This document shows, piece by piece, positions 1 to 36,414 of a stretch of DNA of 64,000 bases. The notes under the pieces are model-generated. The model worked only from the letters and a program-made list of their open reading frames with translations. It was not told where the DNA came from and searched no databases. The translations under genes and the position numbers were made by a program. Within the stretch, counting starts at the first letter, position 1. Every line of letters starts with the position of its first letter. The stretch comes from Candidatus Moraniibacteriota bacterium (lineage in GTDB: Bacteria > Patescibacteriota > Minisyncoccia > Moranbacterales > UBA1568): contig CAVZUR010000005.1 of the NCBI GenBank assembly GCA_963778555.1, positions 97,756 to 161,755 of the forward strand, in the 5' to 3' direction.

Positions 1-1620
1 GTCACCAATGGTGCAGGGAGTATTACCATCGCTTCGACTCTGGGTGTGGCTGTCGACAGCGCTGAAATCACCGACAATGACCTGGACTTCATCGATTTCC
101 AGAATACGATGGATCTCGATGCCAACCTCACCCTGAATCAGACCACATTTACTTGGGACCCAGTCCTTCACCGGCACCACAACCAATGGCTACACCTACA
201 CCGCCGCCTCCCTCACCACGGGCTACGCTATGGACCTGAACGTCAACGGTGCCGTCCTCACCTCGGTGGCGCCATCAACATCGACGGCCGACTGGCGCGG
301 CAACTACCGGCTCCTTCAAGATTACGACCACGGGGCGGTGATGGCGGGGAGCTTCAAATCTCTGCCACCGCCACGATGCCTCTATATCAATCTCGGATGC
401 CGCGGCAATGACGACCGACTGGTGATCACCCCGCCGCCCTCGCACGGCTACCAGGACTGGTCAACGGCGACGCCACCTCACCCGGGTGCGCCATCGACAT
501 GACGGAACGACCGGAGTACTGCACTGCCGGATCCTCAAGATACGACGACTGGCGCCGCGAACCGGCACTGATCTCGGGACTGCCTCCGATATGCTCGCCC
601 CTCCAGAACGTCGCCTCTACCGTAGCTAGGCACGATGACGACGACGGGCGACTTGCTCACCCTTACTGCAAACTCGGCCACTAGTGCGACGGGACTTCTC
701 ACAATTGATGGCGGTAATGCGATGACAAGTGGTGGGGCCCTCAACATCACCGGCACTACCTATAATCATGGTGCTGATTTTGAAGAAGCCACTCTCGTGG
801 CTGTTGCTTATTCCGATACGACCTCTGGCGCTTTCAACACTACCACCTACGGCCTTGCGTCAACCCGACCATCAACATCACCACCGGTGCCGGCTCCAAA
901 GACAACAGTGCTATCTTCGTTCAACCATACCTCTGTACCGGTGCCACCCATTAATGTCTGTCCGGGACTCACGGATGCTCGGACATGGAACGACCAGGCC
1001 ATAAATGTTGGTTCTGGCTGGGATACGTATTCAACTCCTTTTCGCTCGATATCTCTGGTACTGGCGCCATCACCGGAGCGACGGGGATCACCTCGAGTGG
1101 CTCTATCACCTTTAGTGCCTTTACCAGTAATGGTGGTCCGCTCTACACCAACGGTTCGGGTGTCATCGCTCAAACCACTGCCGGGACAGCGACCCAAGTC
1201 CTCCATGGCGGTACTGCTCCAAGCTTCTCGGCCATTGTTGCTGCGGATATTACCGCTGACTCCCTCGACTTCACCGAATTCCAAGACACCCTCGATCTCG
1301 ATGCGGCCCTCACCCTGAACCAGACCACCAATACCTGGACCCAGTCCTTCACCGGCACCACCACCACCGGCTTCGCCTACACCGCCACTTCCCTCACCAC
1401 TGGCTCCGCCCTCAATGTCACTACCACCAATACCGCCACCGCCAACACCGCCCTCTCACCGGTTCAGTTCAATCTGACCAATGCTCAATCCACCCTCGCG
1501 AATACAGCTGGCATCAATGGAGTGCAAGTCAACTTCACCAACAACCCATCCATTGCGGGAAACACCGAAAATGCGGTTCGGATTCAGAACCAGGTCACGC
1601 GAACGTCACAGACAATGCGG
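1..1620 (+). pseudogene. Degenerate, multiply frameshifted 5' portion (or decayed paralogous copy) of the giant repetitive surface-protein gene; at least five frame switches between frames +1 and +2
   Basis: ORFs 46-411, 230-502, 635-1318 and 985-1818 alternate between two frames but all encode the same repeat modules seen in 1481-5629 (e.g. 'SLDF.EFQDTLDLDA.LTLNQTT.TW', 'MDLNVNGA.LTS', 'GAINIDG'). Alt-frame ORF 3082-3387 inside the clean gene gives the same junk peptide as 46-411, showing region 1-500 is a copy of ~3000-3500. Confidence 0.45.
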
Positions 1621-4600
1621 TCGCTCTCTCCTCCTCCTCGACAACGCCGATACTACCGCCACTGGCACCACCATCGTCACCGATGCCATCGCCATCACGA
1701 ACTCAGGCGGATCCAACTTCACCAACTTCCTCAATACCCCGACCCTCGACATCAGTGCGGCGGGGGCCATCACCGGAGCGACGGGGATCACAAGCTCGGG
1801 GAACATCACGTTCTCTAGCCTCACCGCTGGCTCTGTCCTTTTTGCGGGGACGTCGGGTATTCTCCAGCAAGACAATGCCAACTTCTTCTGGGATGATACG
1901 AACAATAGATTGGGGATCGGCGACACCACGCCCGATGGGCGGTTCGACTTCGACCTAGCCTCCACCTCGACGACGGCCGCGAATGAATACGGCGGTAACT
2001 ATACGTTCACGGATACTGGCGTCGTCACAACCGGTACGGACAATACTATCGGAGAGTCGGTCACAGTCACTCGGACCGGCGCGACCGGCGGGACGATCAG
2101 CACGTATGGAAGCCTCATCACGGCCACCGCCGATACGGCGGGCGCGGGCACGTCTGCCATTATCGGCCAGTATGTGACGGCCTCTGGCGCCGACACCACG
2201 TATGGGTTTTACGCCAATGTGACAGGTACGACCAGCGCGACTTCCTATGGCTATCTGTCGAACGTGACTGATGCCACGACAGGTGCCAATACCAATTATG
2301 CCGAGGCGCTTCAGATAACAGACACTGGTGTCGTGACGGCAGGTACGGATATCACGGTGGGCGACTATATCACCGTCACTCGAACCGGCGCGACCGGCGG
2401 GACGATCAATACCTACGGGGACGAAATCATCATAACGACGGACAATGCTGGTGCGGGCACGAGTACTGCCACTGGTGAGCTTATCGATACCGGTACGGCT
2501 GGAACGACGAATGCCGATACGACCTACGGCCTCTATGTCGCTACTGAAGCCAATGCCGGAACGACAGCGTTTGGCATCTATGTCGATGCGGGTATCCAGG
2601 CTGGAACCGAATACGCAGGCATCTTTATGAATGGCAATGTCGGTGTCGGGGATGCGACACCTCTCTCACTCTTCACTGTCGGCAATGGTGACCTCTTCCA
2701 GGTCAATTCGAGCGGTGCGATCGCCGCTGCCGCTGGTGTCACCTCTTCCGGTACCATCACCTTCTCTGGTCTTTCCACGGCCGGTATCGTCACCAACACT
2801 GCTGGTGGCGTCCTGGGGACGACCACGGCCGTCGCCGCGACCCTCGGCGGCACGGGCTTCTCCTCCTATGCGGTGGGTGATCTCCTCTACGCCAATACCA
2901 CGACAAGTCTCGCCAAACTCGCTGATGTGGCGGCGGGCAGCTGTCTCATCTCGGGGGGTGTCGGTGTAGCACCGACATGGGGAGTGTGTGGCGCGATCTC
3001 GGCTGACTCACTGGATTTTGTCGACTTCCAAGACACCCTCGACCTCGATGCCAATCTCGTCCTCAATCAAACCACCTTTACTTGGGATCAGTCCTTCACG
3101 GGGACGACGACCAATGGTTTCACGTATACGGCGGCGTCTCTGACCTCGGGCTACGCTATGGACCTGAACGTCAACGGTGCCGCCGTCCTCACCTCGGGCG
3201 GGGCTCTGAATATCGACGGCCCGACCGGTGCCGCGGCTCAGGCGGCGGGCTCACTTTTCAAGATCACGACCACGGGAGCAGTGACCGGGACGGACGGGAG
3301 CGGCAATTCATCGCAGATCTCGAGTGCGACGGTGACCGGTACTGTGTCGTCTATCTCGGATGCCGCGGTCATGACGACGACCGGTGACCTCCTCACCCTG
3401 ACCGCCAACGCAGCGACGACCACGACCGGCCTCCAGACGATCAATGCCACTGGTCTCACCACGGGCTATGCCATGGACCTGAACGTCAACGGTGCGGCGG
3501 TGCTCACTAGCGGTGGAGCCATCAATATCGACGGTCCGACGGGCGCGGCGGCTCAGGCCTCTGGTGCGCTCCTCAACATCACGACCACGGGAGCGGTCAC
3601 CGGTACGGCCGGTATCGGCAACTCACTCCAGGTGACGAGCGCTACCGTGACAGGCACGGTCGCCTCTATCACCGATGCGGCCACGATGACCACGACCGGC
3701 AATCTCCTCACTCTCACGGGCAATGCGGCGACGACGGCAACGGGCCTCCTCACGGTGAATGCCAACGGCCTCACGACGGGGAGTGCAGTGAACATCGCAT
3801 CGACCGCGACGGGACTCACGACCGGTGGCGCACTGCAGACCATCACACATTCGGGCTCGAATGCGGCCAACATCGGTTCGCTTCTCTCGCTCCAAAACAC
3901 CGGGACAGCCAGTGGCAACATCAGCCTCCTCATCCAGCACAATGCGACGGGAACAGGTAATCTGGCGTTCCGAGTCAACGATATCGCCGGCGATACGACA
4001 CCCGTGGTCATCGATGGCACGGGCCAGTTCGGTATCGGGACAGCTGCGCCGACGACATTGTTCGAGCTGTACGGCACCGGGTCGGCGGACGCGATCGCGA
4101 CGTTGACCGCGCCGGATGCAACCTTTGATCCGATCCTGAAGTATCGCACTGGCGCCACTCCGGCCGTCCAGTTCTCGCTCGGCATCGACAACACTGACTC
4201 GGACAAGTTCAAGATCTTCTCGGGTGATGGCGTCGGCTCGGGCGATGAATTCGTCATCGATAGTAACGGTGTCACGACAATCGCCAACCTGAACCTGGGT
4301 GCGACGACCTTCGACTCGGACGCCGGCGCGATCGTCTGGACGGATATGCCGGTGACGGCGACGACCGCCGCTGCGACCGTGATGAGCTATAGCGCGCAGA
4401 TTGATGCGACGAATCTCATGACGATGTATTCCGAGAGCAACGGTACGGGCGGCATTCAGAATACGCGTGTCGGTATCCTGACGACTGCCCCGCTTGATGT
4501 GCTGCATGTAGCTGGTGATGTGCGCGTCGGTACGGGCACCACGGGCTGTGTAAAAGACGCAGACGCGACGGTATTGACGGGAACCTGCTCTTCGGACGAA

Positions 4601-5629
4601 CGATTGAAGAAGAATATCATCCCGTTTGATAGTGTCCTGGATAATCTCGCCTCATTGACGCCCGTTACCTACAACTGGAGAAGTGATGAATTTCCGGATA
4701 AGCATTTCGGAGAAGCTGTGCAGCGCGGTCTGATTGCTCAGGATGTACAACGGGTATTTCCAGAGCTTGTGAAACAGGATGACGATGGCTATCTGCAGAT
4801 TGATTTTTCGAGCATTCAGTTCTATCTCTTGCAAGGTATCAAGGAAGAATACGCGTTGATTCAAGACCAATCAAACAGTATCGCCGCATTGTCTCTGGAG
4901 ACGACAGCTAGTATCACGACCTTGTCTGAACTCGAAGCAGCCGTTGAGGGACAGTTGATACTCGCGAGCGCGAACTTCACGACGCTGGCGGAAAAAGATG
5001 CCTTGATTGATACCAAACTGACAGAACATGATACGTACTTCGCCCGCGACCTGGCGCGGCTCGACGCAATTGATGCGCTGACGGCTCAGATGGCGCTCGA
5101 TCAGAACGCAGCCGCGGCCAACCTGGTGACGCTTCAGACTGAAATGACGGTTTTGACCGAGCAAGTCGGCACGCTCATGGAATTCTTCAACACGCTGGAC
5201 CTCGGCAATATGGTCGCGAAAGACGAGCTCGGCAATGTCGACCTGCTCGGCGGCACGCTCCGGGCCACTGCGCTCGCCACTGGCGGTATCACTATCGAAG
5301 TTGCCGATGAAGAGGCTCCGACCATTGGAACAGCGATGATCCTTCCAGTCGAGACGGACGCGGACGGCGATGGCAAAGATGATGAGACTGGTTCGGACGG
5401 CAAGAGTACGAGCGTCCTGACAAAAGCAATGATCCCGATGATCAACGGCTCACGCATCTTCACGAGCTTCAAGGGCAATCCGAACGCGTTTAGCTGGATC
5501 GAAAAGATCGTCACTGATGACGGGGAGTATGTCGGATTCAAGATCCGCGTCTCGGCGCCGGTCACGGAAAAGATCAAGGTCGACTGGTGGCTGATCGAGC
5601 AGAAGGATACGTTCTCGTCGAATCCATAA
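1481..5629 (+). CDS. Giant (>1380 aa) Thr/Gly/Ala-rich repetitive cell-surface protein (β-helix/fibre-like repeats) with peptidase S74-type intramolecular chaperone (auto-processing) domain and a coiled-coil-rich C-terminal region
   Basis: Uninterrupted 1382-aa ORF. Low-complexity T/G/A/S repeats. Tandem ~106-aa repeat (318 bp) at ~3153-3470 and 3471-3788. Motif block 'SSDERLKKNI...YNWRSDEF...GLIAQDVQRVFPELV...YLQIDFSSIQFYLLQGIKEEY' (~4590-4870) matches the tail-fibre/endosialidase C-terminal chaperone (Peptidase_S74) signature. Confidence 0.75.
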   Translation: MLNPPSRIQLASMECKSTSPTTHPLRETPKMRFGFRTRSRERHRQCGRSLLLLDNADTTATGTTIVTDAIAITNSGGSNFTNFLNTPTLDISAAGAITGATGITSSGNITFSSLTAGSVLFAGTSGILQQDNANFFWDDTNNRLGIGDTTPDGRFDFDLASTSTTAANEYGGNYTFTDTGVVTTGTDNTIGESVTVTRTGATGGTISTYGSLITATADTAGAGTSAIIGQYVTASGADTTYGFYANVTGTTSATSYGYLSNVTDATTGANTNYAEALQITDTGVVTAGTDITVGDYITVTRTGATGGTINTYGDEIIITTDNAGAGTSTATGELIDTGTAGTTNADTTYGLYVATEANAGTTAFGIYVDAGIQAGTEYAGIFMNGNVGVGDATPLSLFTVGNGDLFQVNSSGAIAAAAGVTSSGTITFSGLSTAGIVTNTAGGVLGTTTAVAATLGGTGFSSYAVGDLLYANTTTSLAKLADVAAGSCLISGGVGVAPTWGVCGAISADSLDFVDFQDTLDLDANLVLNQTTFTWDQSFTGTTTNGFTYTAASLTSGYAMDLNVNGAAVLTSGGALNIDGPTGAAAQAAGSLFKITTTGAVTGTDGSGNSSQISSATVTGTVSSISDAAVMTTTGDLLTLTANAATTTTGLQTINATGLTTGYAMDLNVNGAAVLTSGGAINIDGPTGAAAQASGALLNITTTGAVTGTAGIGNSLQVTSATVTGTVASITDAATMTTTGNLLTLTGNAATTATGLLTVNANGLTTGSAVNIASTATGLTTGGALQTITHSGSNAANIGSLLSLQNTGTASGNISLLIQHNATGTGNLAFRVNDIAGDTTPVVIDGTGQFGIGTAAPTTLFELYGTGSADAIATLTAPDATFDPILKYRTGATPAVQFSLGIDNTDSDKFKIFSGDGVGSGDEFVIDSNGVTTIANLNLGATTFDSDAGAIVWTDMPVTATTAAATVMSYSAQIDATNLMTMYSESNGTGGIQNTRVGILTTAPLDVLHVAGDVRVGTGTTGCVKDADATVLTGTCSSDERLKKNIIPFDSVLDNLASLTPVTYNWRSDEFPDKHFGEAVQRGLIAQDVQRVFPELVKQDDDGYLQIDFSSIQFYLLQGIKEEYALIQDQSNSIAALSLETTASITTLSELEAAVEGQLILASANFTTLAEKDALIDTKLTEHDTYFARDLARLDAIDALTAQMALDQNAAAANLVTLQTEMTVLTEQVGTLMEFFNTLDLGNMVAKDELGNVDLLGGTLRATALATGGITIEVADEEAPTIGTAMILPVETDADGDGKDDETGSDGKSTSVLTKAMIPMINGSRIFTSFKGNPNAFSWIEKIVTDDGEYVGFKIRVSAPVTEKIKVDWWLIEQKDTFSSNP
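4590..4870 (+). other. Peptidase S74 / intramolecular chaperone auto-processing domain within giant surface protein
   Basis: Conserved S74 chaperone-domain motifs (SDERLK, YNW, GLIAQDVQ, IDFSSIQFYLLQGIKE) read directly from the translation. Confidence 0.6.
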
Positions 5630-5967
5630 CCACTCTGCGTATGTATCAAGCACTGTCGCCATGAATAAAAAAAAGCCGGATGAGCAGTGGAGCGATCCGG
5701 CAGAGCCACGAGGCTGGCAGAAGGAATAGTCATGTCCTGGGAAGGGGCGGAAGCGCGGACACTTCTCCTCTCCCAGGACAGGATCATACCACCTGTCTAA
5801 AACTCAGGAAAAAAACTTTAACCAGTTTCCTGAGGCAGTGACATTCCGCGAAAGGCGCTTTTTCGAGAAGCGCTTTTTGCGTTACTTCTTATCTTAGAGG
5901 AGTTTGTCTCATTCTGGCAAATGAAATCATGCTATTTTCTAACCCGACTACCAACCTTACGACTAAA

Positions 5968-6003
5968 TGTAACATAATTCCACGGCCGTGGAATTATGGT
6001 ACA
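5968..6003. promoter_or_regulatory. 36-bp near-perfect palindrome (core 26-bp perfect: CATAATTCCACGG|CCGTGGAATTATG); candidate operator/hairpin just downstream of the PaaX-like gene stop
   Basis: tgtaacataattccacggccgtggaattatggtaca is its own reverse complement with one outer mismatch. A second copy lies at 6640-6675. Confidence 0.5.
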
Positions 6004-6015
6004 GTGAGAAAAAGG

Positions 6016-6576
6016 CTATTTCTGTTTAAAAAAATGACGCTTCAGGTGTTCTACATCATTGAGAGTGATCACTGTGGCCACTCGGACGTATGGTTCGGCG
6101 CCGTATAAGTGGACTAATTTCAAGATAGCCGACTCATACGGGTATGGGGAAACAAAGACGCTTTGTTGAAGTTTATAAAACTCCAATGTCTGGAGATGTT
6201 CACGCAGGACGTCTCGAAATGCTCGATTGGCTTCCGGAATATCGAAGAGAACCAGGCGCCACTTCTTATCCCACGCTTTCGGCTTTCTCAAATGGATAGA
6301 ATCACCGAAAAGGCTGAGTACTTGAGCTTCACGTTGACCCTCTTTGGTCAGCACTAAGCGGTACGAACCATCCGAAAGCTTCAATTCCCTAAAGAGTTTT
6401 TGGTGCGACAGCCGACGAAGAGAACGATTGAAACTTCGCTGGTCGATCTCCTTCCATCCGGCATGGGCGAGTCTGAGCGCTCTGAAATACTGAGCGGGGG
6501 ATTGAACTGCGCCGAGCGCCACCCCAGTCAAGAGCACAAGAAGAATTTTCTGCTGTACTGGACCGAATTTATACAT
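6016..6576 (-). CDS. PaaX-like winged-helix transcriptional regulator (Cas2-fold C-terminal domain)
   Basis: 186 aa. N-terminal wHTH-like region. C-terminal 'WDKKWRLVLFDIPEANRAFRDVLREHLQTLEFYKLQQSVFVSP' matches the PaaX-family core motif (W..V.FDIPE...R...R..L...GF..LQ.SV). Confidence 0.5.
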   Translation of the reverse strand: MYKFGPVQQKILLVLLTGVALGAVQSPAQYFRALRLAHAGWKEIDQRSFNRSLRRLSHQKLFRELKLSDGSYRLVLTKEGQREAQVLSLFGDSIHLRKPKAWDKKWRLVLFDIPEANRAFRDVLREHLQTLEFYKLQQSVFVSPYPYESAILKLVHLYGAEPYVRVATVITLNDVEHLKRHFFKQK

Positions 6577-6639
6577 CGCTTTCCATGGAATTGAGTATCC
6601 GTACGACCCTTAATTCGCTACCTGTCTTTTGTATCGTAT

Positions 6640-6675
6640 TGTAACATAATTCTACGGCCGTGGAATTATGTTACA
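6640..6675. promoter_or_regulatory. Second copy of the 36-bp palindrome, 64-99 bp upstream of the PaaX-like start; candidate autoregulatory operator
   Basis: tgtaacataattctacggccgtggaattatgttaca has perfect outer arms and one central mismatch. Immediately followed by a C8-N12-G8 hairpin (6681-6707). Confidence 0.5.
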
Positions 6676-6780
6676 TCGAACCCCCCCCACCCTTCCAGAG
6701 GGGGGGGCTATGAACTCACGCACCGATAGAGTAACAGTATCGTCAACACCCCCATCAAAGGCTTTTCAAAGCACCAGCGT

Positions 6781-7879
6781 TTACTGGCCGACTTCTTTCC
6801 AGTTGAAGTCGCACGCCCGAGTACCGGGACAGGTGACAATGGTTCCGCAGCCATCATCGATGGTGAAACTTGCCACTGGGTCATTCGAGCATTTATTGAC
6901 AGAAATCGCGGTGGAACTGGCACTCGCACAGGAATTGGTCGGGACGCAGACCACGTTGGCTATCGCGAAGGCAGAAGCGTGAAGTCCGAGGTACGGCGTG
7001 ACGCTAATAGTGCTTGACCCAGTGGATACGCCTCGAGCCGTCCGTCCTCTAGGACTGCCATCGTTATTTCCCACCCTTGCGACATTTTGATTTGAGCTGA
7101 GCCAGGCGACAGCATCGGTCACATCAGTCGTACCAGTGAGGTTGCTGCAATCAATAGTTCCGCCACCGGCACGGTAATAGGCATTGAACTGGAAGGGCGT
7201 GATGCCTATAATCGCTGAGGCGGGACAAATCTTGAAATCCGCACCACCGAGAACCGTCACGGTGGCCTGTGCCGTGGTGACGCCGCTAGAATTGGTGGCA
7301 ACGAGTGTAAATATCGTGGTACTCGTCAGCAAGGGTGTTGAAATCGAGCCGATCGGTCCCAAAAACGGTCCACCAACCCCATTATCGATGAACACGGAAG
7401 TCGCACCAGGAATATTCCAGTTGAGGGTAGTAGCGGTATTGTTGGGAATGGTAGCTGGAAACGCCCAAAAGGCTCCGGGGGCGATGACGGGGGGGACAAC
7501 AGGCGCGGCGACGCTGCAGACTCCGCCGCATTGGTATGCGCCGGGACAACATTGGCCCAAGACATTGCAACTGGAACAAGGCAGGCCGTAGAGCGGCTCG
7601 ATCATGGAGGTTCAATATCGCACAGGAGGCGGGGACGACGAGTCCGCCGGCTTCGCCCGATGGAGATGTCGCCGCAATCTGGATTTCGGAAGAATACGCT
7701 GCTATGGGGGCCGAGCGGGGAGTTTGATACGAAAAGAAAAACCCACCCGCCAGGAAGGTTACGAGAGCAATTGAAAGGAAGAGAACCTTATTTTGTTTTG
7801 ATGCAATCCGGATTATTTTCCGGATTTTTTTACGCAAAGACATACCTTTTGTTTCGAGGGAATCAACACCAATCCACAA
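6781..7879 (-). CDS. Secreted Cys-rich protein with bacterial Ig-like (Big_2-like) domain(s); N-terminal signal/TM segment encoded in a different frame (apparent frameshift near 7605-7630)
   Basis: ORF 6781-7605 has Ig-like 'SGVTTAQATVTV', 'ARVGNNDGS...TISVTPYLG' and many Cys. Upstream ORF 7382-7879 (other frame) supplies 'MSLRKKIRKIIRIASKQNKVLFLSIALVTFLAGGFFF' signal anchor. Confidence 0.45.
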
Positions 7880-7921
7880 CCATAGTATACATGTTTTTCC
7901 GGCTTTTCTAAACCATGGAGG

Positions 7922-8698
7922 CTATTTGTCAAGTAGCCCGAGATTATGTCGGATGACACTTCGAGTTTCCTCGAGACCGGCCGCGTAGAGGGCTGGATCA
8001 TTTCCCGGATACGCCCGGCCCCAATCAGTTGGGCTCATGTGTTCGCTTGCGAGGAGTGCGGTCTCTAGAGCCTTTCGAGCAGCTTCTTTTTCTCCAAGAT
8101 TGAGGAGCGCGGTACCATAAATGTTGTTCAGCCAGGGATTGCCGTGAGCCTGTCTGAGGCCGGCTGCTGCTGTGTCGCGAGTCTTTTCATACTCACCTAG
8201 CTTGAAGTAAATCCACGCCAAGTCGTTGTAGCCGGCCCAATTGAAGGAATCGCGTTTGATGAATTCGCTGAATCCCCAGATTGCGCTTTCATAGTCGCCT
8301 CTATATCCACTAATGAGCCCCTGCATATAGTAGGCCCGCTTGAATTCAGGATCTATACGGAGTACGGTGTCCATCTCAATCCGCGCCGATTCGAATCTTC
8401 CACTGATGAAATGGATGCGTCCGAGCTGGAAATGCGCTTCCAAAAAATCAGGATGTAATTCAATCGCTCTTGTGTAAGCAGACTCCGCTTTCTTAATGTC
8501 ATATGCTTCTCCATCCCCGAAATAGCTATCGCCGATTTTTAGAAACAGATCTGGATTGCTACGATTAACGAAAGTGGCAACCGTTTCCAACCCAAGACCG
8601 GGCCAGAAGGAATAGAGTTGCGGGATATGGAAACATGCGTAGGTACTGGAGAAAAGGGCAATAACAGTCCCAACCAACAGCACAGTGGAGGGCCTCAT
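7922..8698 (-). CDS. TPR-repeat protein with N-terminal membrane anchor
   Basis: Multiple TPR-like repeats (AYTRAIELHPDFLEAHFQLGRIHF..., RAYYMQGLISGYRGDYESAI..., YNDLAWIYFKLGEYEKT...). N-terminal hydrophobic helix. Confidence 0.7.
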   Translation of the reverse strand: MRPSTVLLVGTVIALFSSTYACFHIPQLYSFWPGLGLETVATFVNRSNPDLFLKIGDSYFGDGEAYDIKKAESAYTRAIELHPDFLEAHFQLGRIHFISGRFESARIEMDTVLRIDPEFKRAYYMQGLISGYRGDYESAIWGFSEFIKRDSFNWAGYNDLAWIYFKLGEYEKTRDTAAAGLRQAHGNPWLNNIYGTALLNLGEKEAARKALETALLASEHMSPTDWGRAYPGNDPALYAAGLEETRSVIRHNLGLLDK

Positions 8699-8807
8699 TT
8701 TGAGAGTCAGAGAAGTGATGGAATCCGTGATTTTATTCATGCATGATTCCAGTATAATATATCATGTTGAGATAGTATTTTTGCAGAAAAAACAGTTGTC
8801 GTTGTGT

Positions 8808-10229
8808 TCATGGGAACATATGCGGCAACGGATTCAGCTTCCACTCGGTGACACCTTTGGAAGCAGCGAATTCCTCCAAACGGTCGCTGTCGAAGGTGCC
8901 CTGGCACTCGAGGAGATAGAGGGGGAAAGCCTTCGGTACATAGACTTGGGCGATGTAGAACCCGAGCTTGGCTTGGATGGGATGCTTGGGGAAATAGGCA
9001 ATCGGGTAGTAGTCAGGGCCTCTTTTTCTCAGAACGGAGAGGCAGGCTTTCAGTTGGGTAGCATCATCGGTCGCTGAGGTGAGATCCTTTTGGCAGAGTT
9101 CCGCGTAGGAAACCTGCTTGCCGGAGAGGAACCACTGGAATTGCTGGATCTTTTCGGGACCGCGCCAGTAGAGTTGCCGTCCGATTTGACCGAGAACAGA
9201 AACGAATGGTTCGGATTGAGCATCCTTTTCCAGCTGCCGCTTATCACCCTCGTAATAAAACATTTCTGAGCTTATCACTATTTCTCTTAGAGAATGCCGT
9301 ATCGCTTGTTCGAATGTTGTCGCACTGGCGCCGCTCAGAACAATCTGAGGAGTCGCGCTCTTTGAGTTTAGGGCAGCAATAACGATAGACGGAATAGAGA
9401 GCGTTGTCACATCTACGATATGTAAAGACAGGCCGCATGATTCCAACGGGCGTATGATTTCCTGCATCTCCTCGGGGAGTGTTTCTACATCAATGATCCG
9501 CGGAGGAATCTGAGTGAGCCAGTGGACCAAGAATGCATCGCGCTCGATTGTTTCGAGGAGCCCACGCAGGAGAGCGCCATTTTTTGTGAAGTACCCGGCT
9601 GATCCGCTGGTCGTGGCGTTGACGAGAGGGGCTTCAGTGGAATAATTTTTGACGCACCATGAGGTCACTTGCCGCGGGATATACGTTTGTTCTTGCGTAA
9701 TGAGATTAATTCCACTCAGCCAATCCATCGGACGGGACGGGTCATGCTGGAGTTCCCGGTAATGCTCTCTTTGGATGTCCAAGAAGCGATGGTATTTCGG
9801 CGGGTAGAGTACTGGAAACTTTTTGAGCAGTTCGTTCGATGAAGCGATTAGTATGTCGGTATCCTTATTATACAAACCAGAAATGATGCGCTCAAGCATT
9901 TCGCCGATCGCTTTGGAAATAGCAGTCGCCCTATCTTTCGCAATCCCATGGCCGCTCACGCTCCGAAGATGTCCACGCACGACTACTTCTTTTTCCAGGG
10001 AATAAAAAAAGTATCCGGGAAAATGGAGACTTCTTTCTGCCATCGCATCGACGAGCCCTTTTTTTTTCAGATAAGTGTAAAGGGTTTCAGAGGCAGAGGT
10101 GACATCATCCGTGTGAGCAATATGCAGACTGTCCGCAAGCCAGGAATATCGGACGAATTGTTTTAATAAGCAAATCCGTATCCGATCGCCGATTCCCAGC
10201 GGTATTCGCCAGGGTCCGAACTTGTCCAT
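8808..10229 (-). CDS. YcaO-domain cyclodehydratase (TOMM/azoline-forming 'D' protein), paralogue 1
   Basis: 'TSGSAGYFTKNGALLRGLLETIERDAFLVHW' YcaO core. C-terminal Pro-rich 'NPLPHMFP' (PxPxP-type) motif typical of YcaO C-termini. ~474 aa from MDKFGPW. Confidence 0.8.
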   Translation of the reverse strand: MDKFGPWRIPLGIGDRIRICLLKQFVRYSWLADSLHIAHTDDVTSASETLYTYLKKKGLVDAMAERSLHFPGYFFYSLEKEVVVRGHLRSVSGHGIAKDRATAISKAIGEMLERIISGLYNKDTDILIASSNELLKKFPVLYPPKYHRFLDIQREHYRELQHDPSRPMDWLSGINLITQEQTYIPRQVTSWCVKNYSTEAPLVNATTSGSAGYFTKNGALLRGLLETIERDAFLVHWLTQIPPRIIDVETLPEEMQEIIRPLESCGLSLHIVDVTTLSIPSIVIAALNSKSATPQIVLSGASATTFEQAIRHSLREIVISSEMFYYEGDKRQLEKDAQSEPFVSVLGQIGRQLYWRGPEKIQQFQWFLSGKQVSYAELCQKDLTSATDDATQLKACLSVLRKRGPDYYPIAYFPKHPIQAKLGFYIAQVYVPKAFPLYLLECQGTFDSDRLEEFAASKGVTEWKLNPLPHMFP

Positions 10230-10349
10230 AATTGGTTTCTTTCGTTTGATTTCGTCTGGTCTAACCGAATGTACCAATATACAGAGTGATGTGGATAGTT
10301 TTACATGGAGATGTCATACAAGTACACCTACGTTTCTCCTGGTGTATTT

Positions 10350-19454: not shown

Positions 19455-20888
19455 TTGGCTGAAATGCCATCTCAGAATACATCAATTCCCTCAGATACGA
19501 TAACCGCACGCATCCCTATGGAGATGAAAGGAGTGATAAAGGATAATCAAAATCCTCGGGCCTCGATAGGCATTCTTTGCTCCTTCCTTCCGTTTTTTTT
19601 CGTCTTCGAAAAGGTCTATAAGAATTTGGAAAATGTTGAATTTATTCTTGATTTTACGACTCTCCCCATTGGAATTCCCTATCCAGAGTGGTATAAGGAA
19701 CGAATGCGAAAGTATTTTACAAATCAAAATGTTTATTTTCGCGATCTTGAAGCAAGCAATTTTACCCCGGCAGAGTTTTTTTCGAAATACCACACATTGG
19801 TAAGTGGATCTTTTGATGGTCTGATGGCGCATAAGTGCAATCAAACCAAAAAAAAAGTGCGAGTGATGTATGGCCTCGCCAAAGACCTCAATAGTTTTTC
19901 TCTCACAAATACGCATTTCGACCTGGTAGCATGTCCCTCGGAGTATGTCGCTAAGAGAATGCAAGATCTATGCGGTGTTCGTGTCGCGGTGACCGGTGAT
20001 CCCAAATATGATCGCTACATTCTTGATGCCTCGCCAACACCGCCAAGTATAGAGGAAATTCTAAAAGCGAGTCAGGGCAAGAAGATCGTCTTATTTGCTC
20101 CGACATGGGGGAATCTTTCATCTGAGAAAAGAATCCTCCCCGTTCTTGTGGAGCTATCTCAAAAATATACTGTTTTCTACAAGCCGCATCACATGACAAT
20201 GATATCCCAGTCAGAGGTCATTAAAGACTTCGACAGGATTTCGGATATTCACATAATCTGGGACGATGTGAGTTTCATGGATATGTTGAAGAAAGTCGAT
20301 GTGGTAATCACGGACAATAGCAGCGCTATATTTGACACCATCATTGTTAAAAAACCTCTAGTCCTTATTGATATCACGGTTGAGGGAAAATTTCCTTATG
20401 CAAAATCCCCATTCTATTCTTTTCGGGGGGGGAAATTCGGTGGTGTTTCTACATCACTTGAGAGTCTCGAGCAGGTAGTGAAGGTAGAGGGCCGGGAAAT
20501 TGCTCCAGTAGTACGGCTTTCAAAAAAATTGATTGAGGATACGTTGCCACCACTTGCGACTGCTATCGAAGCGGCAATTGAATCAGCCGGGGGGTTAATT
20601 TATTTGGAACGGCAAAAGCAGGTATTGAATGATTATTCGGGAGTGATTGACGGAAAAGCGGGGGAGCGCATTGCAAGTGAAATCCAATATATGGTCGATA
20701 ATTACGTAGAAGATTCCAAAAGCGCGCTTGAACCATATGTGTATGACTTTCAGCATAAAGTACGCGAGGAGGATCGGGACGTATTTGATTGGGAAAACCA
20801 GGATAGGTTGGATGAACAAAAGATATTGAACATACGGCGGTTACCAATGGTTGAAAAGGTTAAAAAAATCATAGAATTATTCTATTAG
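19455..20888 (+). CDS. Second TagF-family CDP-alcohol phosphotransferase
   Basis: 'FYKPHHMT...VDVVITDNSSAIFDTIIVKKPLVLID' TagF signature. Confidence 0.65.
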   Translation: MAEMPSQNTSIPSDTITARIPMEMKGVIKDNQNPRASIGILCSFLPFFFVFEKVYKNLENVEFILDFTTLPIGIPYPEWYKERMRKYFTNQNVYFRDLEASNFTPAEFFSKYHTLVSGSFDGLMAHKCNQTKKKVRVMYGLAKDLNSFSLTNTHFDLVACPSEYVAKRMQDLCGVRVAVTGDPKYDRYILDASPTPPSIEEILKASQGKKIVLFAPTWGNLSSEKRILPVLVELSQKYTVFYKPHHMTMISQSEVIKDFDRISDIHIIWDDVSFMDMLKKVDVVITDNSSAIFDTIIVKKPLVLIDITVEGKFPYAKSPFYSFRGGKFGGVSTSLESLEQVVKVEGREIAPVVRLSKKLIEDTLPPLATAIEAAIESAGGLIYLERQKQVLNDYSGVIDGKAGERIASEIQYMVDNYVEDSKSALEPYVYDFQHKVREEDRDVFDWENQDRLDEQKILNIRRLPMVEKVKKIIELFY

Positions 20889-20891
20889 CAT

Positions 20892-21851
20892 ATGTCGAAG
20901 GGCCTGTCTGTTTCTGTCGTTATCCCTACTCTGAACGGCCTTCTTAAATCAGATATTGTTTTGTACAGTCTGGAAAGACAATCCTATCTCGTGAATATCG
21001 TCGAGGTGATCATCGTTGATGACGCATCGAACGATCCTGAAAAAAAAGTACGGTATGAACTGATACAGGATCGGTTCTCTCGTTTGAATGTCGTGGTGTT
21101 GTTTCATGAAAGGAATACCGGCCCCGCTGGTGCTCGCAATACCGGGGTAAAAAAAGCGAAGGGGGATGTGATTTTTTTTACCGACGATGATTGCGAATTG
21201 CCGTCGAACTGCATCGAAGAACATCTCAAGATATATGCTGCCCACCCCTCCGTCAGTAGTGTCGGCGGATGGTACAAACCGTATGATAACGATATTCGGG
21301 ACAGTCTCTATCAAACATACATGATGATTCATGTTCTGAATTATTCTTCCCTGTTCCATCAGTCGATCTCTTGTTCTCCCGAAGGTTTCGCATTTCCCGC
21401 GGTGAATACCGCCAATCTCTCAGTCCGACGGCACGTATTCAGTCAGGTTCAATTTGATGAAGATTTTACAACCCCCAGTTATGAGGACAGATTTTTCTCC
21501 GAAAGCATCCGGAGGGCTGGATATACCATGTACTACTTCCCCCTCTTCATTTTTCACCGAAAAAAATTGAATCTGAGAGGATTTATTCGACTTGCTATGA
21601 ATAAAGGGATGGGCCGGTATGTTTACTATGGGAAGCACGGAGTACTAGATTCTCAAGCGTTCGATGCCGTTCTGAGAAAGCGCGATTTGATCAGGCGATT
21701 ATCCTTGACTAACTCGCAGATCCGGAAAAGAAAATGGAGACTTTTTGTGTTAGTTTACGCATGGTATTTCCTGGAAAGTTCCCACATTATGAAAGGATAT
21801 TACGAGCGTGCATATGTCAGAAGAATGGGATATTATCCAGGTTCTCTGTAG
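20892..21851 (+). CDS. Family 2 glycosyltransferase (GT2), tandem copy 1
   Basis: 'VSVVIPTLNG...VEVIIVDDASNDP...VIFFTDDDCELP' GT-A fold DxD motifs. Confidence 0.8.
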   Translation: MSKGLSVSVVIPTLNGLLKSDIVLYSLERQSYLVNIVEVIIVDDASNDPEKKVRYELIQDRFSRLNVVVLFHERNTGPAGARNTGVKKAKGDVIFFTDDDCELPSNCIEEHLKIYAAHPSVSSVGGWYKPYDNDIRDSLYQTYMMIHVLNYSSLFHQSISCSPEGFAFPAVNTANLSVRRHVFSQVQFDEDFTTPSYEDRFFSESIRRAGYTMYYFPLFIFHRKKLNLRGFIRLAMNKGMGRYVYYGKHGVLDSQAFDAVLRKRDLIRRLSLTNSQIRKRKWRLFVLVYAWYFLESSHIMKGYYERAYVRRMGYYPGSL

Positions 21852-21906
21852 GTATTGCGATGAGAGCAGCGGAGATAAAAAAATCATAGAATTATTCTAT
21901 TAGCAT

Positions 21907-22875
21907 ATGTCGAAGGGCCTGTCTGTTTCTGTCGTTATCCCTACTCTGAACGGCCTTCTTAAATCAGATATTGTTTTGTACAGTCTGGAAAGACAATCCT
22001 ATCTCGTGAATATCGTCGAGGTGATCATCGTTGATGACGCATCGAACGATCCTGAAAAAAAAGTACGGTATGAACTGATACAGGATCGGTTCTCTCGTTT
22101 GAATGTCGTGGTGTTGTTTCATGAAAGGAATACCGGCCCCGCTGGTGCTCGCAATACCGGGGTAAAAAAAGCGAAGGGGGATGTGATTTTTTTTACCGAC
22201 GATGATTGCGAATTGCCGTCGAACTGCATCGAAGAACATCTCAAGATATATGCTGCCCACCCCTCCGTCAGTAGTGTCGGCGGATGGTACAAACCGTATG
22301 ATAACGATATTCGGGACAGTCTCTATCAAACATACATGATGATTCATGATAGGAGCGCTTACGGAAATCTTCTTTACTACCCGTCCGCCTCTCGTCTCCC
22401 CGAGGAGTCTAAGTTCCCGGCGATAAATACCGCCAATCTCTCAGTCCGACGGCACGTATTCAGTCAGGTTCAATTTGATGAAGGCTTCATAGCACCGGGG
22501 TATGAAGATCTATTTTTCTCCGAAAGCATCCGGAGGGCTGGATATACCATGTACTACTTCCCCCTCTTCATTTTTCACCGAAAAAAATTGAATCTGAGAG
22601 GATTTATTCGACTTGCTATGAATAGAGGGATGGGCCGGTATGTTTACTATGGGAAGCACGGAGTACTAGATTCTCAAGCGTTCGATGCCGTTCTGAGAAA
22701 GCGCGATTTGATCAGGCGATTATCCTTGACTAACTCGCAGATCCGGAAAAGAAAATGGAGACTTTTTGTGTTAGTTTACGCATGGTATTTCCTGGGTAGC
22801 TCCAGCGTTATGAAAGGATATTACGAGCGTGCATATGTCAGAAGAATGGGATATTATCCAAAATTTATTTCGTAA
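21907..22875 (+). CDS. Family 2 glycosyltransferase (GT2), tandem copy 2 (mosaic: identical blocks separated by short copy-specific segments)
   Basis: First ~148 aa identical to copy 1, including 30 bp of upstream sequence. Divergent segment ('DRSAYGNLLYYPSASRLPEESKFPAINT' vs 'VLNYSSLFHQSISCSPEGFAFPAVNT'), then near-identical again. Confidence 0.8.
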   Translation: MSKGLSVSVVIPTLNGLLKSDIVLYSLERQSYLVNIVEVIIVDDASNDPEKKVRYELIQDRFSRLNVVVLFHERNTGPAGARNTGVKKAKGDVIFFTDDDCELPSNCIEEHLKIYAAHPSVSSVGGWYKPYDNDIRDSLYQTYMMIHDRSAYGNLLYYPSASRLPEESKFPAINTANLSVRRHVFSQVQFDEGFIAPGYEDLFFSESIRRAGYTMYYFPLFIFHRKKLNLRGFIRLAMNRGMGRYVYYGKHGVLDSQAFDAVLRKRDLIRRLSLTNSQIRKRKWRLFVLVYAWYFLGSSSVMKGYYERAYVRRMGYYPKFIS

Positions 22876-33352: not shown

Positions 33353-33416
33353 AACACACATAAACATTCGCCTCAGCTACTGAATGTGGCTGAGCACTGA
33401 AAGGAGGTGAGAGGTT

Positions 33417-33788
33417 ATGCAAAAATTCAAAAAAGTTGCCTTCGGTGCTCTGAACGGGCTGCTCTTGCTCGCGCCGGCTGTGGCTCATGGTCAGTCTTGG
33501 GATGCTTCTATCGGCGCCGCACAGGCCAATTCGGGTCTGCCGACGGGATCGATATCGGGTATCATCATAGCGACCCTGACCTGGCTCCTGGGAATTCTCG
33601 GCTTTCTCGCGATGATTGGGTTTATCATCTCGGGTATTCTCTATCTCACCGCCGCTGGCAATGAGACGCAGATCGAAAAGGCCAAGAACGCTATGACATA
33701 CTCCATCATTGGTGTCATCGTAGCGCTCATGGGCTTTGTGATCATTCAAGCGGTTGATCTGTGGTTGGGGACGTCAACGACTTTCTAG
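33417..33788 (+). CDS. VirB2/TrbC-pilin-like protein, array member B
   Basis: 'MQKFKKVAFGALNGLLLLAPAVAHGQ' signal peptide; '...FIISGILYLTAAGNETQIEKAKNAMTYSIIGVIVALMGFVIIQAV'. Strong SD 'aaaggaggtgagaggtt' before ATG. Confidence 0.6.
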   Translation: MQKFKKVAFGALNGLLLLAPAVAHGQSWDASIGAAQANSGLPTGSISGIIIATLTWLLGILGFLAMIGFIISGILYLTAAGNETQIEKAKNAMTYSIIGVIVALMGFVIIQAVDLWLGTSTTF

Positions 33789-33794
33789 TTCGTC

Positions 33795-33850
33795 CTTTCC
33801 GATCGAAAAGGGAACACGACTCGCATCAGCGGGTCGTTTTCTTCGGACAG
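33795..33850 (+). terminator. Hairpin plus T-run after array member B (repeated after member C at ~34435-34490)
   Basis: 'gaacacgactcgcatcagcgggtcgttttcttc'; identical element downstream of member C. Confidence 0.4.
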
Positions 33851-34056
33851 AAACTGATTAGTCTCATGTCTTGAGTGTCTCAGACTGGGTAATGAAAAAG
33901 AATGTTGACAGTTGTGTTCAGATGTTTTAGACAGGCTTTTTAAGAAGGGATATACTAGAAGCATGTAAAAGTGCGTTGATTGTCTGGTAACGAAATATCT
34001 ATTCACATTCGCCTCAGTCACGTCGGTGACTGAGCACTGAAAGGAGGTGAGAGGTT

Positions 34057-34428
34057 ATGCAAAAATTCAAAAAAGTTGCCTTCGGTGCTCTGAACGGGCT
34101 GCTCTTGCTCGCGCCGGCTGTGGCTCATGGCCAAGCGTGGGACGCTTCTATCGGCGCCGCGCAGGCCAACTCGGGTCTTCCGACGGGATCGATATCGGGT
34201 ATCATTATATCGACCCTAACGTGGCTCCTGGGAATTCTCGGCTTTCTCGCGATGATTGCATTCATCATCGCGGGTATTCTCTATCTCACCGCGGCTGGTG
34301 ACGAGTCCCAGATCGAAAAGGCCAAGACGGCCATGACATACTCCATCATTGGTGTCATCGTGGCGCTCATGGGCTTTATCATCATTCAAGCGGTTGATCT
34401 GTGGTTGGGGACGTCAACGACTTTCTAG
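34057..34428 (+). CDS. VirB2/TrbC-pilin-like protein, array member C (recent tandem duplicate of B)
   Basis: About 90% identical to B including 5' UTR/SD and 3' terminator. Confidence 0.6.
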   Translation: MQKFKKVAFGALNGLLLLAPAVAHGQAWDASIGAAQANSGLPTGSISGIIISTLTWLLGILGFLAMIAFIIAGILYLTAAGDESQIEKAKTAMTYSIIGVIVALMGFIIIQAVDLWLGTSTTF

Positions 34429-34672
34429 TTCGTCCTTTCCGATTCGATTAGGGAACACGACTCGCATCAGCGGGTCGTTTTCTTTTGGGATGGGGCCAGT
34501 TTGCCCTTCGAGCACGAACGAGATTGACGGTGAAAAAAACCATTGACAGGATCGCTAACATGCTTTGGACAGGCGCAGTAGGAGGGGGTATACCACTACA
34601 CCAATATATTGGTGTAGTGGTATACTGAAACCATACAAAACTGGGTAAATTGTCTAACTCGCTGCGTGGAGT

Positions 34673-35053
34673 ATGTTTATAGAGAAAAATACAGGAACCG
34701 TGTTTATGACAGCCACGTTCGTGGCGCTAGTTGTGTTCGCTGCTTTCGGATTGACCTCGGAAGTCTGGGCTCAGTGGAATATGGCCGACCCGAACCTTGC
34801 CGACTCGGGCCTTTCGGATTCGACGGCCTATGACATCCTCGTGACGCTCATGAATTGGCTTCTCGCCATATTGGGCTTCATCGCCATTATCGCCTTTGTG
34901 ATCTCCGGCATGCAGTACTTGACGGCGGCGGGAGACGAGGGGTTGGCGGAGCGGGCCAAGAGCAATTTGAAATACTCCATCATCGGCATCATCGTCGCGC
35001 TCTCGGGCTATATTATCATCGTGACGATCAGTGACGTGTTCCTGTCGGCCTAA
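34673..35053 (+). CDS. VirB2/TrbC-pilin-like protein, array member D
   Basis: '...FVISGMQYLTAAGDEGLAERAKSNLKYSIIGIIVALSGYIII'. Confidence 0.55.
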   Translation: MFIEKNTGTVFMTATFVALVVFAAFGLTSEVWAQWNMADPNLADSGLSDSTAYDILVTLMNWLLAILGFIAIIAFVISGMQYLTAAGDEGLAERAKSNLKYSIIGIIVALSGYIIIVTISDVFLSA

Positions 35054-35093
35054 ACCTAACAGTGGGAGGCCAGTATCAAAGGCAGGATCAGTT

Positions 35094-35528
35094 ATGAGCG
35101 GCCGGAACAGTATGCACACAAAAACGAACACCCCCCAGCGAATACAGGTTTTTCCGAAGATTTTTTATTTCGGGGTTTTTCTTTTGTTTGGGGTATTGTT
35201 TCTCGGACCAACAGAGCTCTTTGCACAAACGTGTCCGGCTGGATTTAGTGCGGAGAATGGCACGTGTTGGCCTACCAATACAGGTCTCTCAGAGGCGTCG
35301 CTCTATGATATTATCGTGGCGGTCATGAACTGGATTCTCGCGATTGTCGGTTTCATCGCTATCATTGCCTTCACCATCTCAGGTGTCCAATATATGACCG
35401 CGGCCGGGGATGATTCGCAGATTGAAACCGCCAAGCGCAACATGAAGTATTCCGTCGTCGGTGTTATCGTCGCGCTTTCGGGCTATATCGTCATCGCGAC
35501 AATCGATAATTTGTTCCTGTCAGCCTAA
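35094..35528 (+). CDS. VirB2/TrbC-pilin-like protein, array member E, with short Cys-containing ectodomain
   Basis: 'QTCPAGFSAENGTCWP' then '...FTISGVQYMTAAGDDSQIETAKRNMKYSVVGVIVALSGYIVI'. Confidence 0.55.
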   Translation: MSGRNSMHTKTNTPQRIQVFPKIFYFGVFLLFGVLFLGPTELFAQTCPAGFSAENGTCWPTNTGLSEASLYDIIVAVMNWILAIVGFIAIIAFTISGVQYMTAAGDDSQIETAKRNMKYSVVGVIVALSGYIVIATIDNLFLSA

Positions 35529-35590
35529 GTGGCTCAGGTGTCAGTGCACCCAGAGAAAGTCTCAAAAAAACAGCCAGTCACTCGGATAGC

Positions 35591-36400
35591 ATGAACACAA
35601 AAAGAAACCGGCGACCCCATACTGAAATCTTCCCAAAAATGATTGTTTTTGGTGTTGTTCTGTTGTTCGGAGCATTGTTTCTCACGCCTTCTCCGGCGTC
35701 GGCCCAGAGCTGCGTCGGGACCTGTGTGCCGAACTCTATCGGCTGCCAGGGTACGCTGATTCCGGGTCCCGGTACTTGCCCAGATCCGGCGAATGAAGAA
35801 TGTTGTTGGGGCGGTGCGATCCCTGATCCAGTACCGACTGGGGGTGGTCCAGCAGCTTCAGCTGGTGGCGGACCGGTCTCTATGACGTCTACAGACGTCT
35901 CCAATCCGCTCAGCTTCACCACAGTGGATACGCTTTTGACGAACGTTCTCGGTTTCGTCCAGAGCTTCATGGTCATCCTCTCCCTCATCTTCATCGTCAT
36001 CGGCGCAATCATGTATATCACCTCGGGTGGGGACTCGGGCCGTATCGAGACGGCCAAGAAGGCCATCGCCGCGGCTCTCATCGGCCTGGCCATCGGTATT
36101 GCGGCCCCGGCCTTCCTGAAAGAGATCGCCCAGATCCTCGGCTGGACCGATGTCCCGAGCAATGTGAGCGGTGCCAAGTCCCTCCTCGAAATCGCCGGCG
36201 GCGTTCTGAACTTCCTCCTCTCTGTCGTCGGCATCATCGCCCTCATCATGCTCGTCGTCGGTGCCCTCATGTATCTGACCGCGGCCGGGGATGAAGATCG
36301 GATCGATACCGGCAAGAAGATCGTGAAGTACTCCATTATCGGCATTACGATTGCTTTGGCCGCCATGGTCTTGGTGCGGCAAGTCGCGGGGTTTTTCTAA
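35591..36400 (+). CDS. Pilin-like array member F: Cys-rich ectodomain plus two tandem pilin-like double-TM modules
   Basis: 'CVGTCVPNSIGCQGTLIPGPGTCPDPANEECCWGG'. Module 1 'GAIMYITSGGDSGRIETAKKAIAAALIGLAIG'; module 2 'GALMYLTAAGDEDRIDTGKKIVKYSIIGITIALAAM'. Confidence 0.55.
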   Translation: MNTKRNRRPHTEIFPKMIVFGVVLLFGALFLTPSPASAQSCVGTCVPNSIGCQGTLIPGPGTCPDPANEECCWGGAIPDPVPTGGGPAASAGGGPVSMTSTDVSNPLSFTTVDTLLTNVLGFVQSFMVILSLIFIVIGAIMYITSGGDSGRIETAKKAIAAALIGLAIGIAAPAFLKEIAQILGWTDVPSNVSGAKSLLEIAGGVLNFLLSVVGIIALIMLVVGALMYLTAAGDEDRIDTGKKIVKYSIIGITIALAAMVLVRQVAGFF

Positions 36401-36414
36401 ACTGATACGAGGCT

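Follow-up and report, generated by a model that had tools for sequence, protein, structure and literature searches.

The stretch of DNA considered here is a 64-kb window (64,000 nt, the whole of the stretch analysed) on contig CAVZUR010000005.1 of a Candidatus Moraniibacteriota bacterium, in which two copies of a near-perfect palindrome bracket a single short gene for a PaaX-like regulator. The gene lies on the minus strand at 6016..6576 and encodes a protein of 186 aa, a truncated PaaX-like regulator with a predicted N-terminal winged helix and a central Cas2-like (PaaX_M) domain, and without the C-terminal effector domain. The downstream palindrome, copy A (5968-6003; 36 nt; TGTAACATAATTCCACGGCCGTGGAATTATGGTACA), lies 13-48 nt past the regulator stop in a gap between convergent genes, and the upstream palindrome, copy B (6640-6675; 36 nt; TGTAACATAATTCTACGGCCGTGGAATTATGTTACA), lies 64-99 nt before the regulator ATG; neither is assigned to a strand. 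Copy B, in which the outer hexamers GTAACA and TGTTAC enclose the centre ACGGCCGT, is a putative autoregulatory operator, while copy A is a putative second operator, acting as a loop anchor or a roadblock, that is also terminator-like on the minus strand. A first-pass annotation had reported this pair of 36-bp palindromes, the two differences between them and their distances from the regulator, and its coordinates, sequences and distances proved exact. The copies differ at 5981 (C) versus 6653 (T) and at 5999 (G) versus 6671 (T). The same annotation had described both copies as self-complementary around a perfect core, which is correct bar one arm mismatch in each: in copy A, 5972 (A) stands opposite 5999 (G), and in copy B, 6653 (T) stands opposite 6662 (G). 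The mismatches are so placed that the 26-nt core is perfectly palindromic in copy A only.

The pair is real and far beyond chance. A repeat search of the window recovered copies A and B, which are 672 nt apart, in direct as well as in inverted pairing, and neither the 26-nt nor the 20-nt core has a third match in the 64-kb window at <=3 mismatches, with none in 100 shuffles. With a half-site weight matrix built from related loci, the two copies score 47 and 48 bits respectively; no other stretch of the window reaches 8 bits, and the best of five shuffles scored 8.2. Copies A and B are the sole sites among the ~60 genes of the window.

The central domain places the regulator in the PaaX superfamily. 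Residues 100-168 match the Pfam family PF20803 PaaX_M with 78.6 bits (cut-off 24; E = 3.8e-22), and the TIGR02277 PaaX equivalog model gives 33.2 bits against a cut-off of 264.55, aligned over model positions 32-152 of 279 only. The Pfam PaaX_C model has no match in the protein, which stops at residue 186, and the Pfam N-terminal PaaX model has none at E <= 0.01. No paa genes were found beside the regulator in the window or in related loci. Because the effector domain and nearby paa genes are lacking and the score falls far under the equivalog cut-off, the protein is a two-domain, truncated relative of PaaX and not PaaX proper. An AlphaFold (AF2) model, built on an alignment of 42 homologs, has a mean predicted local distance difference test score (pLDDT) of 73; residues 6-76 form three helices and a beta wing (pLDDT 56-80), and a beta-alpha-beta-beta-alpha-beta domain follows the winged helix. 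A Foldseek comparison with solved structures placed E. coli PaaX first (8a39; E = 3.3e-4), followed by many Cas2 proteins and VapD. Among PDB sequences, the single protein found no match, and a profile search gave weak winged-helix matches to QsrR/MarR over residues 13-87 (E = 0.03). The regulator resembles Cas2 and VapD in these Foldseek matches, in its ferredoxin-like fold and in the FDIPE...LQxSVF signature carried by its Cas2-type domain, and the Asp that matches the Cas2 metal-binding residue (D112) is invariant among its homologs. Unlike Cas2, however, it scores under the Cas2 family cut-offs (PF09827, 18.2 vs 23.8; TIGR01573, 21.7 vs 24.5), its Cas2-like domain has a predicted winged helix joined to it, and no CRISPR-like repeat array was found in the window. 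No cas1 domain was found among the neighbouring open reading frames (ORFs) scanned with Pfam, the rest of the window not being scanned for cas genes.

At E <= 0.001, an exhaustive search for the regulator family recovered 3,017 representatives, each standing for a cluster at 50% identity; at E <= 1e-10 there were 1,026. Of the 150 homologs listed, nearly all have a length of 180-195 aa, and the named relatives come from Moranbacteria, Parcubacteria and other Patescibacteria. From viral contigs the family is essentially absent, with 1 match in 2.9 million. A phage or CRISPR link was considered and rejected, given this single viral match and the lack of a CRISPR-like array in the window.

The association between the palindromes and the gene extends to homologous loci. 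Forty-five loci were fetched by protein similarity and not by DNA pattern, which removes the bias of choosing them by the site itself, and 36 of these were usable for flank comparison. For each, 220 nt of upstream flank were compared with 180 nt of downstream flank, and the best direct local alignment was taken. A site of ~35-45 bp was the best alignment of the two flanks in 28 of the 36 loci, with scores of 18-50 as against 6-10 for the controls, and bracketing extends to 33 of the 36 when weaker matches centred on the same 8-mer are counted. The bracketed loci take in paralogs and subfamilies at 32-45% identity, with a lineage-specific site of ~36-44 bp. The closest relatives of the window regulator (76% and 65% identity) are likewise bracketed, and two paralogs at 38-39% identity (loci L017 and L023) each have their own distinct site on both sides. 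Since bracketing is found in most loci of the family and in its paralogs, it is a property of the family and not an accident of the window. One locus (L056) holds two regulator genes (1640-2203 and 4853-5413), 2.6 kb apart, each with flanking sites of its own.

The converse approach, a DNA scan with TAATTCNACGGCCGTNGAATTA over one genome per species, yielded 24 stretches, all in metagenome-assembled genomes (MAGs) of Patescibacteria type and with 1-3 sites per genome. A regulator homolog adjoins the scanned site in L001, where it is bracketed as in the window, and in L006, L019 and L013. Several of the MAGs are deposited as 'uncultured Bdellovibrionales' (L002, L006-L008, L012, L014-L016, L019, L022), and these carry the site as it is found in Moranbacteria MAGs, and the regulator too where it is visible; the 'Bdellovibrionales' label of those MAGs looks doubtful. 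Synteny around the regulator is low across the related loci, with some clades keeping the same neighbours.

In related genomes the palindrome reaches ~44 nt (AAAATGTAYCATAATTCCACGGCCGTGGAATTATGRTACATTTT), and 45 non-redundant sites from the protein-chosen loci, aligned on their centre, give the half-site logo aaaatGTATCATnWTnnsACGG. The informative positions of the half-site are the outer hexamer (-17 to -12), a T at -11 and an A at -4, the C-G at -3 and -2 being fixed by the search pattern. The whole site can be written as GTAYCA-N7-ACGG|CCGT-N7-TGRTAC, i.e. inverted hexamers 22 bp apart with a central 8-mer. This centre changes with the protein. It is ACGGCCGT in the main family, ACGATCGT in a subfamily at 40-45% identity (L059-L062) and a variant of GCGGCCGC or CGCGGCCG in the L017 and L023 paralogs, and subfamilies at 32-33% identity (L065, L066) have other centres. 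The outer hexamers also differ between protein subfamilies, and the putative recognition helix differs in step with the site, e.g. NFNRSIRRL versus AVARAIKNL. Both types can occur together: genome MFRV01 has main-type sites (L018, L021, L023:7518-7561) and in addition a paralog bracketed by sites with GCACTC hexamers instead of GTAACA. Such co-variation of site and protein is the pattern expected for cognate protein-DNA pairs.

The upstream copy coincides with a predicted promoter. Inspection of copy B for promoter elements, as the first-pass annotation had proposed, found an extended -10-like box, TGTTACAAT, at 6638..6646 on the minus strand, made up of the gene-proximal outer arm of the palindrome and two flanking bases, with an implied transcript start ~55 nt before the ATG. 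The distal side of copy B reads TGTTACATC. Across the related loci, the pattern TGnTAnWWT stands at the gene-proximal edge of 17 of the 30 most-proximal upstream sites compared with 7 of 31 downstream sites (Fisher p = 0.009); the distal side of upstream sites has it in 9 of 44 cases. In nine loci the distance from the end of the site to the ATG is exactly 9 nt, as expected for leaderless transcripts, and several loci have 2-4 tandem upstream copies, ~55-67 bp apart. In the window, a Shine-Dalgarno-like GGAAAG may be read on the minus strand at 6579..6584, 3-8 nt before the ATG. A C8/G8 hairpin on the minus strand (6681..6707; the fold of 6630-6720 on that strand has -20.9 kcal/mol, z = -4.5) separates copy B from the upstream 274-aa gene (6781-7605) and is probably the terminator of that gene. 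As such, it would make the regulator likely to be a separate transcription unit.

The downstream copy is harder to place. On the minus strand, copy A passes a simple terminator scan, with a stem followed by TTACATTT, and copy B fails it. The first-pass annotation had offered three roles for copy A, of which that of an operator for a neighbour is unlikely in the window: the neighbouring 1382-aa gene (1481-5629, plus strand) runs towards the regulator, and a copy between convergent genes is no operator for the neighbour's promoter. Downstream copies also lie in convergent gaps at L019, L045 and L046. Copy A may have either of the other two roles, terminator hairpin or roadblock, given its terminator-like form on the minus strand. 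In lineages with non-palindromic sites, or with T6...A6 flanks, the site is unusable as a terminator; what is conserved, therefore, is that the predicted binding site recurs directly after the stop. This copy may serve to form a loop with the upstream operator or operators, as a protein roadblock, or both.

Taken with the fold of the protein and the low number of copies, these observations make it probable, with moderate confidence on our part, that the palindromes are the cognate operators of the autoregulated short PaaX-like repressor encoded between them; binding, repression and looping or roadblocking are what we infer from the comparison. The first-pass annotation had favoured an autoregulatory operator for a dimeric winged-helix protein, and the comparative evidence supports this, as site and gene co-occur in nearly all homologs, the site shifts with the subfamily and the -10 box lies at the upstream copy. 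A symmetric dimer or higher oligomer would read the bipartite site, with its GTAACA...TGTTAC hexamers and central 8-mer. When bound to copy B the protein would cover the extended -10 box and repress its own transcription, which would be ordinary autorepression. Copy A would be the second operator, also able to fold as a minus-strand hairpin terminator, and its most likely roles would be as the anchor of a ~670-bp repression loop with copy B, as a roadblock or terminator insulating the gene from the convergent giant gene, or as both. The gene for the lambda repressor cI lies between the OR and OL operator clusters, which are joined by a long-range loop. The locus described here would be similar in that a repressor gene stands between its own predicted operators, with tandem copies on the promoter side in several loci and a plausible loop. 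It is unlike lambda CI in its unrelated fold, in an interval of 0.67 kb with a single gene and in belonging to a chromosomal family.

Several features weigh against an autoregulatory operator pair. The -35 region is poor in the window, the regulator has no recognisable effector domain, and the genes beside solo sites in other genomes have no shared theme. The gap that contains copy A is flanked by convergent genes and is not a place to expect a promoter, and solo sites elsewhere are likewise located in convergent gaps or within a gene. Approximately one third of the sites are perfectly palindromic over 36-64 bp, even at positions without sequence information, which is beyond what the footprint of a dimer needs. 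In any one genome the copies are nearly identical, asymmetric positions included, and always in direct orientation; repeat homogenisation or duplication would account for this as well as protein contacts would.

There are 1-3 exact-core copies per related genome, and the neighbours of solo sites include a type ISP restriction enzyme, a KilA-N protein, DUF2238, a YfiH-like protein, a PAS-sigma factor, a HAD hydrolase, an MFS transporter and others. A coherent regulon was rejected on the grounds that these neighbours are without a common theme. In L033, L052, L045 and L046 the sites form arrays near the regulator, with a site in every intergenic gap. MAG contigs were also seen to break in or beside the regulator gene and its palindromes (L006/L008 of MAG CAZHDL01, compared with L028). 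These repeats thus break short-read assemblies, and some apparent solo sites are the regulator's own flanking sites, split apart in this way. A full copy is read in frame, as IIPRPWNYDTF, within an O-antigen-ligase (Wzy_C) gene at L011:2285-2328 and L016:1891-1934 and in L070 (gene 1353-3104) and L071 (gene 3001-4461). In syntenic orthologs with as little as ~48% identity, peptide and DNA palindrome alike persist within a loop that otherwise varies, and the arms of the ortholog sites differ yet stay symmetric (AAAATGTATC... in L011, CAGGGGTAC... in L070 and GTGTC...CCGCGGCCGCGG... in L071). A recent in-frame insertion of the kind known as Rickettsia RPE was rejected, as the peptide IIPRPWNY is old and widely kept in an alignment of 40 homologs and the orthologs keep the palindrome. 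That the site is fixed in syntenic orthologs indicates selection on the DNA.

Among the alternatives, the one that survives best, and which we nevertheless consider unlikely, is that the sites are structural hairpin or cruciform elements independent of the protein, acting as terminators or insulators in RNA or extruded DNA, with a link to the regulator that is incidental or that insulates a dosage-sensitive gene. The palindromy itself speaks for it. Sites collected by centre and symmetry number 84, and 50 of them are perfect palindromes, the arms of which measure 12-32 nt and differ in sequence from site to site; where a palindrome exists, symmetry is kept at positions without sequence information, and the Wzy_C orthologs keep it despite changes on both arms. 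Single-strand folds of the sites are stable (z = -4.7 to -6.3), AAAA...TTTT flanks occur at many Moranbacteria-type sites, sites are found in nearly all types of intergenic gap, convergent ones included, and copy A has its terminator-like form. In one stretch (L013:943-1006), upstream of a regulator homolog, there is a perfect palindrome of 64 nt (32-nt arms) around the ACGGCCGT centre, which is unusually long for a stable bacterial palindrome. The number of compensated differences between sites of one genome was not used, being circular where sites have been selected as palindromes.

The regulator-flanking sites, however, argue otherwise. In 73 of these, symmetry of the spacer (-11 to -5) is bimodal, being complete in 21, present at 6/7 positions in 5 and near chance in most others. 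More than half are asymmetric, with 1-4 of the 7 spacer positions symmetric, and can form no long hairpin, while their centre and hexamers are kept. In these lineages all copies of a locus share an identical asymmetric sequence in direct orientation, and it follows that a long hairpin is not required for the conserved function; a hairpin as an obligatory feature was rejected for this reason. Sites of the L033 type have T6 before and A6 after the stem and no U-tract. Sense-strand mismatches comprise 13 G-T and 14 A-C pairs, and without a wobble bias the symmetry belongs to the DNA level and not to wobble-tolerant RNA pairing. Rfam 15 has no match at the sites at gathering or E <= 1 thresholds, and on these two grounds an RNA hairpin or riboswitch was rejected as the main function. 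Elements acting as general terminators or insulators are also difficult to reconcile with 2 sites among the ~60 genes of the window, and with an invariant centre that shifts with the protein subfamily. Under the operator reading, palindromy of the spacer is not needed for binding, because many lineages do without it. Template-switch correction of quasi-palindromes is a known mutational process, and it is possible that the spacer symmetry comes from this, from contacts of a symmetric oligomer along the whole site, or from a secondary hairpin or cruciform role.

It is improbable that palindrome, gene and palindrome together form a recombination or mobility cassette, with lox/FRT-like or attC/REP-like sites, solo sites that are its footprints or its targets, and action on the DNA by the Cas2-like domain or by an enzyme of the host. 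The layout of 14 + 8 + 14 bp resembles what is generally known of tyrosine-recombinase sites: as in loxP, FRT or attC, inverted arms stand around an 8-bp core in 34-36 bp, direct repeats flank a gene, and arrays delimit single genes in some loci (L033, L052, L045, L046). Wherever a lineage has asymmetric sites, the copies on the two sides of the gene are direct repeats; copies are homogenised within a genome, and the restriction enzyme, KilA-N and RhuM-Fic neighbours, the low synteny around the regulator and the invariant Cas2-type Asp are also in keeping with it. Against this, no tyrosine or serine recombinase, transposase or HUH domain was found in the regulator or in the neighbouring proteins examined, and there was no target-site duplication and no empty site in the comparison of related loci, where synteny is low. 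The Wzy_C site is ancient and has stayed in place, the neighbours of the regulator are retained in some clades, the family is all but missing from viral contigs, and the 8-bp core, unlike those of loxP, FRT and attC, is itself palindromic and thus without directionality. The arms here are also conserved as sequence (GTAYCA and the T at -11) and shift with the adjacent winged-helix protein, and regulation explains the upstream promoter overlap more simply. A related proposal is that the unit is a self-contained DNA-processing cassette in which lox-like sites are cleaved, hairpinned or recombined and the winged-helix/Cas2-like protein promotes the reaction. Were it true, it would also explain the perfect palindromes of variable length and the solo copies, and we regard it as very unlikely.

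Least probable of all, to the point of being scarcely credible, is a selfish dispersed repeat of REP/MITE type, two copies of which flank the regulator by chance, as the extra copies beside unrelated genes in related genomes, the in-frame copy reminiscent of Rickettsia palindromic elements and the tendency of MAG contigs to break at sites (L006/L008) have to be set against 2 copies in 64 kb with none weaker, 1-3 exact-core copies per related genome, one gene family flanked in ~90% of loci, which is beyond chance, an in-frame copy that is ancient and conserved, and the lack of a RAYT/HUH transposase in the regulator. The first-pass annotation had raised this alternative, to be judged by the number of dispersed copies, and the same low numbers dispose of it; its companion idea, a mobile element carrying the regulator, gained no positive support. 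The resemblance to the REP/RAYT system (REPtron) lies in palindromic repeats that flank the gene of a presumed recognition protein and in solo intergenic copies. The system here differs in its low copy number, in having no HUH/Y1 transposase and no GTAG motif, and in the position of the upstream copy on a predicted promoter.

The closest known system is PaaX itself. The E. coli protein recognises TGATTC-N27-GAATCA and is a repressor of its own promoter Px; its C-terminal domain senses phenylacetyl-CoA (PMC9493321). As in PaaX of E. coli and Pseudomonas (Px, Pa, Pz and pac operators), a winged helix, here a predicted one, is followed by a central Cas2-like dimerisation domain, and far-apart inverted hexamers, TGATTC-N27-GAATCA there and GTAYCA-N22-TGRTAC here, overlap the regulator's own promoter, with repression by occlusion proposed here. 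The regulator described here differs in its length of 186 aa versus ~305 aa, in its want of the C-terminal effector domain and of paa genes nearby, in a site with an additional invariant central 8-mer and in a second, downstream copy, which is the rule in this family. A full-text literature search found nothing relevant on PaaX together with Cas2, the candidate phyla radiation (CPR) or Patescibacteria, nor on the motif, and the predicted gene-bracketing operator arrangement, kept in hundreds of uncultured Patescibacteria, is apparently undescribed. What is new is the truncated architecture as a very large family of Patescibacteria, the extra invariant centre, the near-universal downstream copy and the maintained long palindromes. 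The Patescibacteria (CPR) have tiny genomes with few recognisable transcription factors, and almost nothing is known of their regulation. The present result provides a directly testable protein-DNA pair, a route to regulon prediction in uncultured bacteria and a natural series of co-varying site and protein specificity. If it is plain autoregulation only, it will be useful but unsurprising.

The neighbours of the regulator in the window comprise, by Pfam, a giant Peptidase_S74 protein and Big_2-like, TPR and YcaO proteins. The giant protein, in the region 46-5629, is the product of the convergent 1382-aa ORF, which has internal sequence repeats and a Peptidase_S74 intramolecular-chaperone domain (residues 1038-1098), as found in phage tail fibres and endosialidases, and similar repeat modules are seen in the ORFs upstream of it (61-259 and 1243-1440). 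It is followed on the plus strand by a terminator-like hairpin with a T-rich tail at 5847-5881, which holds a 15-nt tandem repeat (CGAAAGGCGCTTTTT / CGAGAAGCGCTTTTT). On the other side, upstream of the regulator, a minus-strand cluster (6781-10277) encodes a YcaO cyclodehydratase (8808-10277), a TPR protein (7922-8740) and the Big_2-like 274-aa protein (6781-7605), and may be a locus for a RiPP-type product or a surface protein. Further into the window, two adjacent genes of ~320 aa (20892-21851 and 21907-22875) have a stretch of 300 nt in common that is 100% identical (within 20861-22671), suggesting that a tandem duplication or gene conversion took place very recently. Finally, the region 33386-38188 contains a conserved coding motif of 76 nt in six copies together with 300-nt repeats at 92-96% identity, and these indicate a small tandem family of paralogous genes.

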